From contig JAUSGI010000005.1 in the NCBI GenBank assembly GCA_030649135.1, positions 1 through 64,000 on the forward strand: a stretch of 64,000 nt of DNA, read 5' to 3'. Shown here piece after piece: positions 4,269 through 59,283 of the stretch. Numbering within the stretch: position 1 is the first letter of the stretch; each line of letters starts with the position of its first letter. Source of the DNA: a bacterium (GTDB lineage Bacteria; Patescibacteriota; Minisyncoccia; Phycocordibacterales; Zambryskibacteraceae). The notes under the pieces were generated by a model that was not told where the DNA came from, searched no databases, and worked only from the letters and a program-made list of their open reading frames with translations. The position numbers and the translations under genes are program-made.

Positions 4269-5408
<1,140 letters not shown>

Positions 5409-5482
5409 GATGTGAATTGTTACGAATTAAACCGTATTAACGAGAGAGGTTCGCCTCGCGGCGAACCTCTCCGAATAACCTA

Positions 5483-5511
5483 TTACTCTCCTAGTATAAC
5501 AAATCCCTAAA
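5483..5511 (-). promoter_or_regulatory. candidate sigma70-type promoter for nusA (TTGCAA, 17 nt spacer, TATACT), followed by a leader hairpin at 5442-5472
   Basis: Read on the minus strand: TTGCAAaaaatttagggatttgtTATACT. The 5' UTR contains a perfect 12-bp stem (GAGAGGTTCGCC gcga GGCGAACCTCTC) about 30 nt upstream of the nusA ATG. Confidence 0.5.
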
Positions 5512-5564
5512 TTTTTTGCAAGCCTTCCTGTCAGAAATCTCCGGTACTGAAGAACTCTGACAGG

Positions 5565-5589
5565 AAGCCGACGTTGCATCGGCTTTTTG
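5565..5589 (+). terminator. plus-strand intrinsic-terminator-like hairpin (AAGCCGA cgttgca TCGGCTT TTTTGA)
   Basis: 7-bp GC-containing stem followed by a T5 run on the plus strand; no plus-strand gene ends here (see findings). Confidence 0.35.
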
Positions 5590-5692
5590 AGGATGGTGAT
5601 TCTCGGGAGTTGGAAGGTCTCCCACCCCTTCTGTTGCCAGGCCGTCCTCACGGCCCCGGTGACCCACGTGATAATCAGCGTATTGCTGCCGG

Positions 5693-6013
5693 CTAGGATG
5701 CCAGCGCAATCTCACTAATCTCAAGCCCCAGAAGATCCGAGAGGTAGGTGTCAACCTCCTCCGGCATCCTCTCCGGCTTGACCACGAGGATCAGGCTGGG
5801 CACCATACCCCTTTCCGGGATAGGAGCCTGCGCCATCACCCACTCGACCTTGGAATCCGACATGCGGTTTTCCACCGCAGCCAGACGCCCAAAGCAAGTG
5901 GTGCAGGCGCACCCCAACCACATCACCTCGAACGCGACGAGATTGCTCTCGACGCGACCGAAGCGAGGGTTGGACCAGCCGTCCACCCGCAGGCGAACGG
6001 TTCGGTTGGCCAT
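5693..6013 (-). CDS. hypothetical small protein with WLGCACTTC (CxCxxC) motif
   Basis: 106 aa from the ATG preceded by GGAGGTGaaatc. GC-rich codon usage, distinct from flanking genes. Possibly a thioredoxin-like or Fe-S-like small protein; not assignable. Confidence 0.45.
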   Translation of the reverse strand: MANRTVRLRVDGWSNPRFGRVESNLVAFEVMWLGCACTTCFGRLAAVENRMSDSKVEWVMAQAPIPERGMVPSLILVVKPERMPEEVDTYLSDLLGLEISEIALAS

Positions 6014-6262
6014 GATTTCACCTCCTTTCATGGCGAGTTATTCACCCGGATACCAACTGATAGCGCCTTCTCGCTAATCAGTCAGAAATCCAAGGCTACA
6101 TTAACGGCTAGGTCGCCCCAATCTTAAAAGAACAGCTGTTTCGCCCTTTTGGGCACATCAGTCGGGATACGCATCCCGAGACAGCAGGGACTAGTTGATA
6201 GTCCCTATGGCGGTTTCATCCGCCCCTCCTTATCCCCAACCTCCCCTGTGCGGGTGAGGATG

Positions 6263-6574
6263 TTACGGGGTCGAATCACCTTTCCCGGCATACTTACTCC
6301 GGTACTCAGCGATGAGCGCGTCCGCCTCCTCAGTCGAGGAGACGACCTGCCGGAGGCTAACCCTCCGGTTGAGCGTGCCGAACCGGCACGCCACGCGCGG
6401 ATTGGCAGCTTCGCCAATCCGAAGGACGAGCAGGTACCCGTCCTTCGTCTTGCGCAAGGAATGAGACATCTCCTCGTCGCAAAACTGGCGCACGACTACG
6501 CCGTCCGCGCTGGGAGCGGAATTGCACCCAGCGAAGAGCACGACCAGACAAAGAACAGCGGCAAACTTGATCAT
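6263..6574 (-). CDS. hypothetical lipoprotein
   Basis: 103 aa; signal peptide with lipobox (VVLFAGC); AGGAGaataagac ATG start; GC-rich. Confidence 0.5.
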   Translation of the reverse strand: MIKFAAVLCLVVLFAGCNSAPSADGVVVRQFCDEEMSHSLRKTKDGYLLVLRIGEAANPRVACRFGTLNRRVSLRQVVSSTEEADALIAEYRSKYAGKGDSTP

Positions 6575-6610
6575 GTCTTATTCTCCTGCGGCCTCGCCGC
6601 TTTCGAACAT

Positions 6611-6660
6611 TAAAGAACTTGAGCGAACCATTTCGCTCTTCTGAAAATCCAATTCCATTA
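6611..6660 (-). promoter_or_regulatory. copy 1 of a duplicated ~50-nt hairpin element located immediately 5' of the lipoprotein gene
   Basis: AAAGAACTTGAGCGAAccATTTCGCTCTTCTGAAaa... shares about 85 percent identity with 6985-7040. Forms a GAGCGAA/TTCGCTC stem extended by AGAA/TTCT. Confidence 0.5.
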
Positions 6661-6676
6661 GATTTTCGGAACAGCG

Positions 6677-6706
6677 GGCGAAGCATTGCACTTCGCCGGG
6701 TTTTTT
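6677..6706 (+). terminator. plus-strand intrinsic-terminator-like hairpin (GGCGAAG cattgca CTTCGCC GGG TTTTTT)
   Basis: Stem-loop followed by T6 on the plus strand, inside the GC-rich block. Confidence 0.35.
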
Positions 6707-6792
6707 AACGTGGTTCACTCCACGGAGCTGTGGTCTCGCCTCGGGATTATGATTTGCCCGAGATCCCCACTCATGTTTGCTCAGGCACCTTC

Positions 6793-6960
6793 GACTTACT
6801 TTCCAAAGCGATACAGCAGCTTTAGGAAGTAAGGAAAGGCCGCGAAGGACTGCGCACCTTTGAAGGCGAGGTTGCATCGCTTGCATACCATCACAAGCTG
6901 CCCGTCATCCGGGTCCTCGACCCCCTCAAGGAGTTTGTCCTTACACTCCGGACAGTCCGT
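6793..6960 (-). CDS. hypothetical 55-aa zinc-ribbon protein (CPEC...CKRC)
   Basis: MTDCPECKDKLLEGVEDPDDGQLVMVCKRCNLAF...; two CxxC pairs; preceded by GGAGGTGGTAAGAG. Below the 60-aa ORF-track cutoff; translated manually. Confidence 0.4.
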
Positions 6961-6984
6961 CATCTCTTACCACCTCCTTCTTCC

Positions 6985-7040
6985 AAAGAACTTGAGCGAA
7001 TTATTTCGCTCTTCTGAAGAACCAAATTTCAATTTTTAGT
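6985..7040 (-). promoter_or_regulatory. copy 2 of the duplicated ~50-nt hairpin element located immediately 5' of the zinc-ribbon gene
   Basis: CAAAGAACTTGAGCGAAttATTTCGCTCTTCTGAAgaaccAAATTTCAATT; same architecture as 6611-6660. Confidence 0.5.
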
Positions 7041-7498
7041 TCCTCGGAAGAGGGGGCTAGAGAAGTTCTCTCGCCCCGGCGTAGTCTGGAGTCCCGGTTT
7101 CCCTATGCCGGGTTATCTCCAGTTAAGGACCCACGCAAGGTCCCGCGCCACAGTCGAGGCTTCCCTCGAACGTCTGTGACGACTCGCCGCAACAACCATT
7201 GCGGCAGCAGGGGCTGAGATCATCAGCCAACCGCCTGCACGGCCGGTGGACTCTGGCGCGTTTTGGGGTACGCACCGCTCCACCATGGGAAGAACAAAAC
7301 CCTGTTTCATCCTTTCGGAATCATCAGCCCGGATACACATCCGGATACAGGAACCAGGGTTTAGCATTCCTGGTAGCGGCTCTGCTTCCGCGCGGCTCAC
7401 CACTCTAAGTAGGTGACACTTCTCTGTTTGTTATCGCGGGACAGAGAGCCGCGTATGCATTTTCTGTTCCCAGGACTGCGATAACACCCCGGCTAACC

Positions 7499-7669
7499 CT
7501 AAGTTAGCAGTACCCGGAGGGAGAAGATTACTTCCTTCTCCTCCAACGATCGGTCCGTCCTCCAGAAGGGAAAGAAATCGCTCGAAGCGACTCCCTCCTC
7601 TCGGATTTCGGACGACCGTCGGGGCTGTAGCCAGCCCGGGCGAGAATCATAGTGGCTTGCACCACCAGA
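7499..7669 (-). CDS. possible small basic ORF (56 aa, GTG start after GGAGGTGagtgagt)
   Basis: VEKGKKNLVVQATMILARAGYSPDGRPKSERRESLRA...; first ORF downstream of the minus-strand promoter at 7733-7761; weak evidence. Confidence 0.2.
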   Translation of the reverse strand, partial: SGGASHYDSRPGWLQPRRSSEIREEGVASSDFFPFWRTDRSLEEKEVIFSLRVLLT

Positions 7670-7732
7670 TTCTTCTTACCTTTTTCCACTCACTCACCTC
7701 CTTTCAGGGAACCTTGTCAGCGTCCGATTACA

Positions 7733-7761
7733 ATCTTACTCCATGTGATATTTATTGTCAA
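7733..7761 (-). promoter_or_regulatory. candidate sigma70 promoter reading into the GC-rich block (TTGACA, 17 nt spacer, TAAGAT)
   Basis: Minus-strand read TTGACAataaatatcacatggagTAAGAT within the AT-rich 7700-7950 hub. Confidence 0.45.
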
Positions 7762-7906
7762 CTCATTTTGACACTTTACTACAACTGGTCGTAAAAATAT
7801 GGCTAAATAAGACCATAGTTTGAAATATGAGTTTAATTTGGTCTGACTAAACTAGTATTTAAAGGGTTGATATTTTTGACCAATAATGGTGTTTAGTCAT
7901 TTACGT

Positions 7907-7935
7907 TTGACAAATAAAATTAGGGGGTATATACT
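7907..7935 (+). promoter_or_regulatory. candidate sigma70 promoter (TTGACA, 17 nt spacer, TATACT) with no protein gene downstream
   Basis: TTGACAaataaaattagggggtaTATACT. The next ~220 nt has no ORF over 22 codons and ends in the strong hairpin at 8131-8155. Confidence 0.5.
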
Positions 7936-8130
7936 GGTGACAGAAACTCCTCGAAAGGAGAGTGCATGAACGACTAGGGGATGGGGAAGTCCGGGGCGTA
8001 GCGCCCCGGACATGACCCAGAAATGCGGTTAACAGAAAAGGAGATTGGGATGGCCGACTGATGTCGTACCTAGGGTAGCTTCAAAAACCAGGAGGGGGTT
8101 ATGCTGTTAGCAATGACCCCACCCACAAAT

Positions 8131-8167
8131 GCCGTGGCGGCTTCACCGCCACGGCATCTTCATTTAT
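8131..8167. terminator. GC hairpin (GCCGTGGCGG cttca CCGCCACGGC) followed by a T-rich tract; terminator for the TrmB-like gene and/or the plus-strand transcript
   Basis: 10-bp perfect stem; flanked by T-rich sequence on the plus strand and lying just 3' of the minus-strand gene ending at 8160. Confidence 0.5.
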
Positions 8168-8900
8168 GATCAAAGATGTATTTGATAAGGCTTTTAAGAG
8201 TTTCTGCAAACTCCTGACTTTTTACAGATATTCCTGAAAGTCTTTTCCCGAGTATGGCTATTTTCACACGATCGCCATAAATCGTTATGTCACTTGTAAT
8301 CGGATACTTTTCATGATCTATTTTAATTCTTTCTCCAGTGCTATCAGACGGTTTATCGATAATTTTCGAGGTGTAAATTGATTTCGACCTGATTCCTCTG
8401 GAAATCCTTTCCTCTCGCATATTCGTCGTTTCTTTTTCAGTAAATAGATCTTTTACTAAATCTAGTGGATATACCATATAGACTGGTTCGTCATCGAGTT
8501 TTTTTACAAAAGTATCATCGTTGGAACTCAAGACCCCTTCCTTACCATCGAAAAACTGGACTATAGGTTTTCCTACTCGCTCTCCTTGGAGACCTCTCAA
8601 TTGGGGGATGATGATATCTAAGCTTTTTTTGTTTTCCTCTAGAAGGTGAATTTGTCTCTCAACAAAGAAACCGAGTTTCTCCGGTGGTTCGGCTAGGTAA
8701 TAAGTCTTTTTACCTATATTGGTCTCACTTACAAGACCCTTTTTAGCCAAAGAGTCGAGAATGACATAAGTTGTTGGTCTTTTAACTTTCGCTTTTTGTG
8801 AGATCTCTGATATTTGAGCCTTGTCGAAAGAGAGGAGGGCGACATAGACTGCCGCTTCCTTATCGCTCAATCCTATATCCCTGAGATATTTCTCGAACAT
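8160..8900 (-). CDS. TrmB-family HTH transcriptional regulator
   Basis: 246 aa; the N-terminal wHTH (DKEAAVYVALLSFDKAQISEISQKAKVKRPTTYVILDSLAKKGLV) matches the TrmB sugar-regulator family layout. Confidence 0.75.
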   Translation of the reverse strand: MFEKYLRDIGLSDKEAAVYVALLSFDKAQISEISQKAKVKRPTTYVILDSLAKKGLVSETNIGKKTYYLAEPPEKLGFFVERQIHLLEENKKSLDIIIPQLRGLQGERVGKPIVQFFDGKEGVLSSNDDTFVKKLDDEPVYMVYPLDLVKDLFTEKETTNMREERISRGIRSKSIYTSKIIDKPSDSTGERIKIDHEKYPITSDITIYGDRVKIAILGKRLSGISVKSQEFAETLKSLIKYIFDHK

Positions 8901-8933
8901 ATATTAAATGATAGCATGACAGAAACTCTGCTG

Positions 8934-9872
8934 TTACTTCCTCCTTGAATGAAACCTTTTGTGGGTATCGCGAAGCGCCTTGTCGGTGACGTGGGTATAT
9001 ATTTGAGTTGTCGAAATATTGGCGTGGCCGAGAAGCATTTGGACGCTACGAAGGTCGGCGCCATTGCTTAAAAGATCAGTAGCAAAGCTGTGACGAATAA
9101 CGTGAGGTGTCACTTTTTTTGAAATGCCGGCTTTTATCGCATAATGCTTCACAATTCTTTCTATCGAGCGGCGAGTGAGAGGAAGGGAGTCTTTGGTTTT
9201 AGTGTTTTTCCCTACCTGAACAAAGAGGGCATCATTCATATCCTTGCGAGCTTTGAGATATTTGGATACGGCGTTTCTCGCTTCATCAGAAACAAAGACT
9301 ACCCGCACCTTACTGCCTTTACCCCTGATAGAAAACTCCCCGACAGAAAGATCAGTATCATTATTTAACGAGCAGAGTTCGGATACACGAAGCCCTGTGG
9401 AGAAAAGCATTTCAAGGATAGCTTTGTCGCGAAGTTCTTTAATTCCATCGCCTTTGGGCATCTCAAGTAGGCGAGTGAGTTCGGCAGGGGAGATGAGATC
9501 AAGAGAGCGTTCTCCAACTTTAGCCAGTTCAATGCGTTCTGCTGGCAGACTTGTAATTTCTTGCCGAGCCAGATACTTGAGAAAAGAGCGTAAGGCAATC
9601 AGATAATAATTCTGCGTCTTCTTCGACATGGTTTCACCGGTTTGTCGGTTATTGCCGGTCGACTGGCGGTTAAGCCACATCCTAAATTCTCTCACCACTT
9701 CGTCACTAATATCCTTCGGATTTTTTACTTCGGTATGCTTAAGAAAAACGGAAAGGTAGTGGTCATAGTTCTCAATAGTCTTGAGTGCCCGGCCCTTTTC
9801 GATCTCGGTATATTCCAGAAATCCTCTCTTTAATCGCTCTAGTTCACTAACATTCCCCATATTGTGCGACAT
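8934..9872 (-). CDS. xerD: tyrosine site-specific recombinase (XerC/XerD / phage-integrase family)
   Basis: 312 aa; C-terminal catalytic box HVIRHSFATDLLSNGADLRSVQMLLGHANISTTQIYTHV (R..HxxR..Y). Confidence 0.88.
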   Translation of the reverse strand: MSHNMGNVSELERLKRGFLEYTEIEKGRALKTIENYDHYLSVFLKHTEVKNPKDISDEVVREFRMWLNRQSTGNNRQTGETMSKKTQNYYLIALRSFLKYLARQEITSLPAERIELAKVGERSLDLISPAELTRLLEMPKGDGIKELRDKAILEMLFSTGLRVSELCSLNNDTDLSVGEFSIRGKGSKVRVVFVSDEARNAVSKYLKARKDMNDALFVQVGKNTKTKDSLPLTRRSIERIVKHYAIKAGISKKVTPHVIRHSFATDLLSNGADLRSVQMLLGHANISTTQIYTHVTDKALRDTHKRFHSRRK

Positions 9873-11194: not shown

Positions 11195-12061
11195 GTGATG
11201 AATCCGGAAGAAACTCCTTTAAAACAAATTCGCACCTTTCAAGGAGATGTAGCGGAAGCACTCCAGAAACAGCAAGGCTCGCTCGTCTCGATTCAACAAG
11301 CGGAACATTTAAGAACAAGGAACCGTCTTTCGGCTACCGATACCGCCACAGAACAACCTAACAAAAGAAAGGAATTCGTCGTGCTCCTTTTAGGAAGCTT
11401 TGTTCTCCTCGCCCTAAGTGTGGGCGGGGGCTGGTATGCTTACAACGAATATGTGAGAAGGTCCGCCACTCCGATTACAACCGCACCGGCAAACAGATTT
11501 ATATCGGCCAATACCGAAGCCAATATAATGCTTGCGGCCACTTCACGCGATACTCTTTTTCAGACTCTTTCCGATGCCATCAAGGGCATGGCCTCCGGGG
11601 AACTTAGACATGTCGTCTTGCGAAAGGGTTTGACGAAAGAAACGGCTTATCTGTTTCCCACAAGCGAATTTTTGGTAGCACTCGAGAGCCGGGCTCCCGG
11701 CGGGCTGGTACGAGCTTTCGACCCGCTTTTCATGTTTGGAGCTTCCGGAAAAAGTGCCTTCTTAATAATTAAACTGGCCTCTTTTGAAAATGCCTTTGCG
11801 GGCATGCTCGCTTGGGAGAAAAATATGAGTCAAGATATCGGACCTCTATTTGCCACCGCCACGCTCTTGAAAGATATGCCGCCCGAAGCCGTCTTCACGG
11901 ACCTGATAGACAAAAACAAGGACGTTCGGGTCCTTGCGCTCGGCAAGGAGCCAGTTCTCCTTTACTCATTTGTCGACAACAATATGCTTATCATCACGGA
12001 TAATATCGAGACTTTAAGAACTCTCGTAGACCGCCTGACGCGAGAAAAACTTTCCCGTTAG
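11195..12061 (+). CDS. hypothetical membrane-anchored protein
   Basis: 288 aa; one TM helix (FVVLLLGSFVLLALSVGGGWYAY) followed by a presumably extracytoplasmic domain. Confidence 0.5.
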   Translation: MMNPEETPLKQIRTFQGDVAEALQKQQGSLVSIQQAEHLRTRNRLSATDTATEQPNKRKEFVVLLLGSFVLLALSVGGGWYAYNEYVRRSATPITTAPANRFISANTEANIMLAATSRDTLFQTLSDAIKGMASGELRHVVLRKGLTKETAYLFPTSEFLVALESRAPGGLVRAFDPLFMFGASGKSAFLIIKLASFENAFAGMLAWEKNMSQDIGPLFATATLLKDMPPEAVFTDLIDKNKDVRVLALGKEPVLLYSFVDNNMLIITDNIETLRTLVDRLTREKLSR

Positions 12062-59255: not shown

Positions 59256-59283
59256 TTGACATTGGATAGTTTATATGTATAAT
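59256..59283 (+). promoter_or_regulatory. near-consensus sigma70 promoter with extended -10 (TTGACA, 16 nt spacer, TGtATAAT)
   Basis: Followed by about 75 nt of UTR and an AAGGAG SD before the GC-rich gene at 59365. Confidence 0.55.

Follow-up and report, generated by a model that had tools for sequence, protein, structure and literature searches.

Minigenes are very short open reading frames (ORFs) preceded by a strong Shine–Dalgarno (SD) sequence, the translation of which leads to release of peptidyl-tRNA and depletion of the tRNA that reads the last sense codon; ribosomes on a minigene can re-initiate without leaving, and ORF length, the last codon, SD strength, and the stop codon determine how strong the effect is (PMC8708949). 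The best-matching described examples are bar of phage lambda and mg2 of the axe-txe leader, each composed of a strong SD, an ORF of two to three codons, a defined last sense codon, and a stop codon (PMC8708949). Here we describe a predicted small RNA of ~225 nt (positions 7942–8167, plus strand) in a 64,000-nt stretch of DNA (contig JAUSGI010000005.1; the whole stretch is referred to as the window) from a genome that is, judged by its sequence, of the Parcubacteria/Paceibacteria type (Patescibacteria). The RNA carries two SD-led ORFs of three codons and runs toward the 3' end of a gene for a TrmB-like regulator, and we give about an even chance to the reading that it is a ribosome-engaging minigene RNA, neither a purely non-coding small RNA (sRNA) nor the leader of a downstream gene, which would sense or throttle translational capacity. 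Candidate phyla radiation (CPR) bacteria account for a large share of bacterial diversity, and to our knowledge their regulatory RNAs are almost wholly unexplored. Literature searches of incomplete coverage found no work on sRNAs or hammerheads in CPR bacteria, Parcubacteria, or Patescibacteria and nothing relevant on conserved three-codon ORFs or tripeptide leaders of this kind. If our reading is right, the phage bar minigenes would have a natural counterpart encoded on a chromosome, and a stand-alone RNA conserved as two three-codon frames would be an unusual form of evidence for selection on the translation of tripeptide frames.

Like bar and mg2, the window RNA is proposed here to act through translation itself and not through a protein product, and the bar-type arrangement occurs in it twice, as AAGGAG followed after 5 nt or 6 nt by ATG-NNN-GAC-stop. 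Unlike bar and mg2, it is a chromosomal RNA dedicated to its minigenes and conserved throughout a bacterial class, it carries two of them in tandem, and it has no downstream cistron; moreover, aspartate is fixed at codon 3, and each frame is embedded in a covarying helix. Leader-peptide attenuators (trpL, hisL, mgtL, ermCL, and toiL; PMC12121999 for toiL) resemble it in having short SD-led ORFs that overlap helices and precede an intrinsic terminator, and in the conservation of an amino-acid codon. However, these attenuators have a regulated gene downstream, which the RNA described here lacks, their ORFs comprise 8–30 codons with a run of regulatory codons rather than three codons with a single aspartate, and no conserved counterpart of their alternative terminator and anti-terminator structures was found here. 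Dual-function and attenuator-derived sRNAs (SgrS/SgrT, RNAIII/hld, and rnTrpL/peTrpL; bioRxiv 10.1101/606483) are small independent transcripts that are both structured and translated, as is predicted for the RNA described here, but they encode peptides of 14–43 aa and have conserved base-pairing seeds, whereas the RNA in the window would encode a tripeptide whose middle residue is free and has no conserved seed.

The start of the predicted RNA is inferred from the −10 box of a promoter at 7907–7935 and its end from an intrinsic terminator. Near the 5' end, the minimum-energy fold places a hairpin CUCCU-cgaa-AGGAG (7947–7960) that contains the first SD, AAGGAG (7955–7960); in relatives, the 5' hairpin sits just upstream of the SD and does not include it. 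This SD lies 5 nt ahead of mini-ORF 1, ATGAACGACTAG (7966–7977; ATG AAC GAC TAG, Met-Asn-Asp-stop). The frame is followed by a folded hairpin, P2/P3 (7982–8019), in which UGGG/CCCA (7982–7985 with 8016–8019) surrounds a 10-bp stem, GUCCGGGGCG-uag-CGCCCCGGAC (7989–8011). An earlier first-pass annotation, made by a model from the letters of the window, had pointed out the hairpin CCGGGGCG-tag-CGCCCCGG (7991–8009) at this place; it is indeed there, extends to the 10-bp stem, and corresponds to the conserved apical stem P3. The second SD, also AAGGAG (8038–8043), stands 6 nt ahead of mini-ORF 2, ATGGCCGACTGA (8050–8061; ATG GCC GAC TGA, Met-Ala-Asp-stop), so that SD and frame together span 8038–8061. 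In a short hairpin, CGAC-UGAU-GUCG (8055–8066), the Asp codon of mini-ORF 2 belongs to the stem and the stop codon to the loop, and the counterpart of this frame in one relative (L085) reads TTG GCC GAC TAG in the same place. Just ahead of the terminator, the fold shows a third SD-like run, AGGAGG, with a hairpin, GGGGGUUAUGCUGUUAGCAAUGACCCC (8090–8121); the equivalent stretch in relatives contains a different hairpin, for example GGGUUGCG..CGCAACCC in L002 and L097. The terminator itself (8129–8167) consists of a 12-bp stem (8129–8140 with 8146–8157; nine G-C pairs), a 5-nt loop, and the T-rich tail CTTCATTTAT (8158–8167). A hairpin with a U-tract had been correctly placed on the plus strand by the first-pass annotation, which gave its stem as 10 bp; our scan gives 12 bp at 8129–8157. 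All of these features are on the plus strand.

The first-pass annotation had described the region as a candidate non-coding RNA and had proposed that conservation of its longest frame, a 22-codon ORF, be examined. No ORF longer than 22 codons is found downstream of the predicted start, as had been stated, and that ORF, MLLAMTPPTNAVAASPPRHLHL (MLLAMTPP..., 8101–8169, plus strand), which is taken from the list of ORFs, is probably not a gene: it has no counterpart in the closest relative (L082, TrmB-like protein 82% identical), and heterogeneous short ORFs occupy its place elsewhere. The same relative carries MND-stop and MID-stop. The term non-coding does not by itself describe the RNA, whose most conserved content is the two three-codon ORFs of the form Met-X-Asp-stop.

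The TrmB-like gene that is convergent with the RNA (8160–8900, minus strand) encodes a winged-helix regulator of 246 aa (Pfam TrmB, E value 1.7e-15) for which we found 306 homologs, every one of the Patescibacteria type (Zambryskibacteria, Minisyncoccia, Paceibacterota, and other Parcubacteria). For comparison we retrieved the surroundings of TrmB homologs in species-representative genomes (80 loci) and added a few contigs that encode the exact protein as well as 21 metagenome stretches; the minigene-motif counts given below refer to 74 species-level loci. A BLAST search with positions 5400–8170 of the window against the loci of relatives found the promoter region and the terminator and missed the body of the RNA, because the RNA is conserved in design and not in sequence. 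In most relatives the design comprises, in order, a promoter, a 5' hairpin, an SD with ATG-NNN-GAY-stop, a long hairpin, a second SD with ATG/GTG-NNN-GAY-stop, a variable 3' domain, and a terminator that has its T-tract in the last codons of the TrmB gene. This unit is convergent with TrmB in 42 of the 74 species-level relatives, most of which carry the second M-x-D frame, and at 237 nt the window RNA is a short variant (255–390 nt in relatives). Thus, in the sequences compared, the promoter, the SD sites, the frames with their Asp codon and stops, the helices, the terminator, and a strict linkage to the regulator gene are conserved. Between mini-ORF 2 and the terminator lie ~60 to 200 nt whose content is not the same from one relative to another. 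In many relatives (L002, L003, L004, L010, L083, L088, and L097) a pseudoknot-like element, GGUGG..GCGUCCGRCCACC..GGACGC, follows mini-ORF 2; its stem covaries (GGCGG/CCGCC in L004 and GCGG/CCGC in L083), and it is not present in the shorter RNA of the window.

A scan of metagenomes by the RNA pattern alone, in which TrmB was ignored, gave 21 stretches, five of which have the promoter, the hairpin, and a second minigene, and all five adjoin a TrmB homolog. The other 16 matches, which come from unrelated organisms and have neither promoter nor hairpin, were rejected as chance matches.

In the 64-kb window, RTGNNCGACTRR matches at two positions only, 7966 and 8050, which are the starts of the two mini-ORFs. 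To quantify this association among the relatives, we counted an SD followed by (A/G)TG-NNN-GAY-(NNN)-stop in the 600 nt that follow TrmB, on the strand opposite to it. The motif occurs 65 times in 42 of the 74 loci (1.46 per kb), compared with three times in all other sequence on both strands (0.002 per kb), which corresponds to an enrichment of ~740-fold at this position and strand. When SD-led ORFs of up to nine codons were counted without presupposing Asp, their lengths peaked at exactly three codons here (64 of 122) and were flat elsewhere. These 64 three-codon ORFs have GAC (43) or GAT (8) as codon 3, almost any amino acid at codon 2, ATG (52) or GTG (12) as start, and TAG (33), TAA (18), or TGA (13) as stop. 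Among the 82 sites of the form SD-start-NNN-GAY, the spacing between SD and start is 4–11 nt with a mode of 7, and a stop codon follows immediately in 54; TGG takes that place in none, and 16 of the other 28 sites stop one codon later. A MAFFT alignment of 22 sequences of the first module contains six invariant columns (ATG and the G, A, and T of GAYT), the C/T position is nearly invariant, and loops and stems vary freely; therefore, there is no conserved single-stranded seed for base-pairing in this alignment. Because Asp codons are used synonymously and start and stop codons are interchangeable while the frame is kept, selection appears to act on translation and not on an RNA sequence motif.

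These results bear on the alternative that the RNA is an ordinary sRNA that acts in trans or binds a protein, in which the SD-minigenes would be ribosome-binding 5' stabilizers against decay and the hairpins would be the functional part. Ribosome binding near the 5' end is an established means of RNA stabilization, the hairpins are stable and covarying, and the pseudoknot-like element in the 3' half of the RNA of relatives could be a functional domain. However, a stabilizer needs an SD and not, twice over, a conserved Asp codon with an in-frame stop; the loop sequences are not conserved; and the window RNA has kept both minigenes without the pseudoknot element. We therefore regard an ordinary sRNA as improbable and prefer the ribosome-engaging minigene RNA, the helices of which involve the first frame itself.

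RNAalifold, applied to the MAFFT alignment that includes the window, recovered only P3. Because MAFFT misaligns the hairpins of distant sequences, we used per-sequence folds, a structure set by hand on close relatives, and a covariance model. In the folds of individual relatives, the Asp codon of mini-ORF 1, usually together with the stop codon, forms the 5' strand of a helix, P1, whose partner lies 60–90 nt downstream and which encloses helix P2 and then the long apical helix P3. P1 covaries, from GACUAG/CUAGUC to GACUGA/UCAGUC (L007) and GUGAUUAG/CUAAUCAC (L013). All three bases of the Asp codon of mini-ORF 1 pair with a distant partner in 23 of 34 minimum-energy folds, which are themselves predictions, as compared with 25% when the downstream sequence is shuffled. 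Across eight close relatives, pairing of the P1-P2-P3 structure amounts to 85%, with double changes in nine pairs and 15 cells, a count reached by none of 500 shuffles (controls in which the structure was slid along the sequence are 28–60% paired), and in P3 five of nine pairs show compensatory changes among 10 sequences. Conservation of the hairpins had been proposed as a check on the candidate RNA, and both the covariation of the CCGGGGCG hairpin and the presence of the terminator in many species bear it out. A covariance model built from relatives alone finds the window at 7952–8033 (plus strand; 29.5 bits) with an E value of 6e-4 in 879 kb, such E values being rough, and recovers four further sequences outside the training set. 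The narrow covariance model R1 misses distant relatives, which were found by pattern search.

Comparison with known RNA families gave no assignment. In the Rfam scan that the first-pass annotation had called for, nothing in the window attained a gathering score, and at E values up to 10 the matches near the RNA in positions 4500–8400 are at chance level only (mir-1908 on the terminator hairpin and BSnc120, 16 bits). There are no Rfam matches to the homologs of the RNA in 16 relatives, the phage database contains nothing similar to the RNA (its single match is to a hammerhead-like stretch of 45 nt, described below), and a scan for tRNA and transfer-messenger RNA found none close to it. The idea of a T-box, which was prompted by the GAC codon and by the GGUGG of relatives, was dropped as there is neither an Rfam T-box match nor a downstream gene.

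The alternative that no separate RNA exists, the region being simply the 3' untranslated region (UTR) and terminator of the TrmB-like gene and the promoter and ORF features being chance occurrences in AT-rich DNA, is in our judgment very improbable. In its favor, the raw number of promoter-like sites at 6500–9500 is not above chance (six as compared with 3.3 ± 2.0 expected), and the minus strand folds well too. Against it, the promoter hexamers are invariant across 13 species, the minigene motif is enriched ~740-fold at one place and on one strand, the T-tract is on the plus side of the hairpin, and a spacer of 220–540 nt has been kept in dozens of otherwise compact genomes. In close relatives, the terminator stem GCCGTGGCG/CGCCACGGC is retained while its loops vary, and the T-rich tail is found on the plus strand only; in the window this tail overlaps the last codons and the stop (8160–8162) of the TrmB-like gene. 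Because the promoter, the SD-start-stop frames, and the T-tract are all read on the plus strand, the region is more than a TrmB 3' UTR.

The first-pass annotation had seen here the anatomy of a small regulatory RNA or of a leader-peptide transcript. The first half of this description holds, in that the stretch has the anatomy of an independent plus-strand unit convergent with TrmB, with parts that show conservation in many species. The role of a leader does not fit, as no co-directional gene lies downstream of the RNA in the window or in relatives, all of which have the 3' end of TrmB in its path. The layout nevertheless resembles that of a leader peptide (short ORFs and overlapping hairpins followed by a terminator), and a cis-acting, ribosome-dependent attenuator has to be considered, in which translation of, or stalling on, the Asp minigenes would decide between a stop at the shared terminator and antisense read-through across the TrmB-like gene, thereby tuning the regulator. 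The constant convergence with TrmB and the overlap of the terminator with the TrmB stop codon agree with such a mechanism, and GAYUAR is common to both minigenes, so that, in principle, the 3' strand of P1 would have two possible partners. On the other hand, no conserved anti-terminator pairing was seen by eye in 13 full-length homologs, a comparison that did not include a dedicated search for alternative structures; the stretch between minigene 2 and the terminator is variable in both length and content; and the terminator is strong and conserved everywhere, with no sense gene behind it. An attenuator is, for these reasons, unlikely in our view.

Since the conserved features are determinants of ribosome engagement and the RNA has its own terminator and no downstream gene, we read it as ribosome-engaging; we infer that it is transcribed, that its minigenes are translated, and that this has a downstream effect. 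According to this proposal, the promoter at 7907–7935 would produce a stand-alone RNA of ~225 nt, its own terminator would stop transcription within the 3' end of the convergent TrmB-like gene, and the two strong SD sites would each load ribosomes onto a Met-X-Asp-stop minigene. Initiation and termination at minigene 1 would require the melting of P1, which in turn would limit the access of ribosomes. The output would be the act of translation: ribosomes would load onto fMet-X-Asp minigenes and be released again and again, which would tie up both ribosomes and peptidyl-tRNA(Asp), in analogy to the bar-type minigenes of phage lambda. In this way the RNA may sense or throttle translational capacity, or Asp-tRNA, by translating its own minigenes, and its level would be set by the promoter hub and the adjacent TrmB-like regulator. 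A more specific version, which is tentative and as a whole rather unlikely, holds that this is a dedicated chromosomal minigene RNA whose sole products would be fMet-X-Asp-tRNA(Asp) and occupied ribosomes, serving a hub- and TrmB-controlled sensing or throttling of translation (e.g., at entry into dormancy or during shortage of Asp-tRNA or ribosomes) in coordination with the divergent, ribozyme-processed operon; it would then stand for a new class of regulatory RNAs, with the translation of three codons as their effector.

Several observations weigh against a ribosome-engaging minigene RNA. The plus strand of the 229-nt region folds at −96.7 kcal/mol (z = −5.2), and the minus strand comes close to this (z = −4.9); since both strands fold stably, folding energy alone cannot tell the strand. 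The window has no local 3' strand CUAGUC for P1, and its fold gives a weak, distal closure of 5 bp (CUAGG/CCUAG). Of the 74 loci, all of which have a TrmB homolog, 32 yield no match to the motif, and these are for the most part the most distant. Distant relatives have a longer second ORF (MVDKQLD, MWDQKKEL, and MGDAPVQP) in which Asp is kept at codon 3 and is not the last residue, which makes for a poorer fit to a bar-type tRNA sink. Because GAY sits in a helix, its conservation may in part be a constraint at the RNA level. Finally, the evidence is wholly comparative and the sequences are mostly metagenome-assembled.

Upstream of the RNA, positions 7700–7950 had been annotated as an AT-rich divergent promoter hub. 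The GC content is 0.33 at 7700–7899 as compared with 0.47 for the whole window, promoters face both ways (TTGACA-17-TATACT at 7907–7935 on the plus strand and TTGACA-17-TAAGAT at 7761–7733 on the minus strand), and the region is conserved block by block in 12 relatives that we aligned with the window (alignment A2, 13 species), so that divergent promoter hub is a fair label. The promoter of the RNA, P_R2 (7907–7935, plus strand; TTGACA, 17 nt, TATACT, with GGG ahead of it), matches the consensus at 11 of 12 positions and ranks among the strongest promoters in the window; its TTGACA and TATACT are invariant in A2, as is the block TTGACAAATAAA..GGGTATATACT, in keeping with its earlier designation as the best plus-strand promoter. 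A P_R2-type sequence, TTGACA-N17-(gc)TATACT, is found 310–540 nt beyond the TrmB stop and facing TrmB in ~50 relatives. The strict pattern TTGAC-N17-19-TATAMT occurs three times in 64 kb (0.10 expected). The remaining two sites with this pattern in the window are at 46285–46314 and 59256–59283, both on the plus strand.

The leftward promoter, P_L (7733–7761, minus strand), consists of a −35 box TTGACA (7761–7756), 17 nt, and a −10 box TAAGAT (7738–7733), matches at 10 of 12 positions in the scan, and points into an operon of small genes and hammerhead motifs; in A2, the relatives have TTGACA..GGTATATACT on the minus strand at this position. Its −35 box is one half of a palindrome of back-to-back −35 boxes, TGTCAA-N6-TTGACA (7756–7773, both strands), for which the consensus of relatives is TTTGTCAAGnnGTTTTGACATTT; A2 columns 78–96 are 70–100% conserved, and the back-to-back −35 boxes form the A2 block TTGTCAAGnnGTTTTGACA. 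A possible second rightward promoter, P_R1 (7768–7797, plus strand; TTGACA, 18 nt, TAAAAA), is uncertain. Its −10 box is weak, and it was not called by the promoter scan because this box lacks T at position 6; its elements TTGACA and TAAAAAT are conserved in A2. The TAAAAAT block is followed by an imperfect palindrome, ATGGCTAAATAAGACCAT (7799–7816, both strands), which reads AGCTATAAATATAGCCAT at the same spot in relatives; both half-sites vary between species in A2 while the symmetry is retained. This palindrome is plausibly a putative operator for a DNA-binding protein, and we would suggest, purely by inference, that the adjacent TrmB-like protein may bind it. A further conserved block, CTGACTAAACTAG (7843–7855, plus strand), contains CTGACT, which is invariant or nearly so in 11 of the 13 A2 sequences, and other A2 blocks are CTGACTAAACTA and then another TTGACA.

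The RNA thus marks a conserved locus that combines a regulator, the minigene RNA, a two-way promoter, and a small-gene operon punctuated by predicted ribozymes. The operon is read leftward from P_L in the order 53-aa gene, a conserved motif that we call motif X, a hammerhead-like motif, two small ORFs, a second hammerhead-like motif, and a 112-aa ORF. The first gene (7528–7689, minus strand) has a strong SD and encodes a basic protein of 53 aa (..ILARAGYSxDGRPKSxRRESLRAISxPCGG..) that is carried by at least five relatives (L003, L006, L010, L019, and L026) and mostly missed by gene callers. It belongs to no Pfam or NCBIfam family, and the homolog from L019, used as a query, gave four unnamed matches. 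None of the small proteins of the island matched a Pfam or NCBIfam family above threshold; a 55-aa ORF has two weak Pfam matches of the zinc-ribbon type. A 41-nt direct repeat (6612–6652 and 6985–7025, 90% identical) contains a hairpin GAGCGAA-loop-TTCGCTC with differing loops, and its copies, read on the minus strand, lie just ahead of the SD of a 103-aa lipoprotein-like ORF (6263–6574) and of the 55-aa zinc-ribbon-like ORF (6796–6963).

The two motifs of the hammerhead type III kind are on the minus strand at 7299–7353 (30.7 bits, core intact, U-U pair at the base of stem II) and at 6133–6187 (42.7 bits, CUGAUGU in place of CUGAUGA, i.e., A9 to U), both below the Rfam cut-off of 48.5. The relatives (L003–L063) have one to nine of these motifs in each locus, always on the same strand and, except in L040, where they are upstream, on the downstream side of TrmB; these score 32–48 bits, again under the cut-off, and L029 has an additional twister-P1-like match (54.8 bits). 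This calls to mind the clusters of hammerhead type III and twister motifs in environmental sequences (RF00008 and RF03160), a likeness that concerns the neighboring transcript and not the small RNA, and in which the copies here score below the gathering cut-off. We found no paper that links hammerheads to a TrmB-like gene in Patescibacteria. Within the motif at 7299–7353, 45 nt (7304–7348) are 91% identical to unannotated DNA near the ends of 51 Pseudomonas phages of ~45 kb; this similarity likely reflects the shared hammerhead core.

Motif X (7418–7516, minus strand; ~95 nt, core 7449–7493) is located just upstream of the hammerhead-like motif at 7299–7353. We identified 15 copies in the window and 10 other loci (two each in L002 and L085, three in L005, and one each in L003, L007, L034, L037, L038, L082, and L097), which are 92–98% identical among genomes whose TrmB-like proteins are only 45–82% identical and share 28 invariant positions. 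Nested stems together with one pseudoknot (CGGGR with UCCUG) are 85% paired with 11 double-changed pairs, which none of 500 shuffles reach, and a second loop-to-tail pairing of 4–7 bp is made by different sequences in different copies. There is no Rfam match to motif X at E values up to 10, and its covarying structure could represent a new ribozyme or another class of structured RNA.

In the wider neighborhood, the gene order is nusA (4269–5408, minus strand), the GC-richer stretch at 5500–7700, the AT-rich stretch at 7700–7940, the candidate RNA, the TrmB-like gene (minus strand), a recombinase gene, and rpsO. The stretch at 5500–7700, which is GC-richer than the AT-rich one, contains small ORFs alone, all on the minus strand. 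The solved structure nearest to the TrmB-like protein is TrmBL2 (E value 2e-4). The recombinase (8934–9872, minus strand) is of the XerD/XerC type, with XerD as the best match (254 bits) and XerC next. An integron-like cassette array formed by the island and the recombinase was considered and rejected, as the recombinase reaches 128 bits with the integron-integrase model, for which the cut-off is 265. In L097, a XerD/XerC-type recombinase lies between nusA and the island, and in the window it lies beyond TrmB; the order of modules at 5500–7700 also differs from that at 5700–8440 of L097 although the NusA proteins are 87% identical. In L039, a rimP-leader-like match (11341–11432; 37 bits, E value 0.02) directly follows the last hammerhead-like motif, which, together with the position of nusA beside the island in the window, suggests that the island sits ahead of a rimP/nusA operon.

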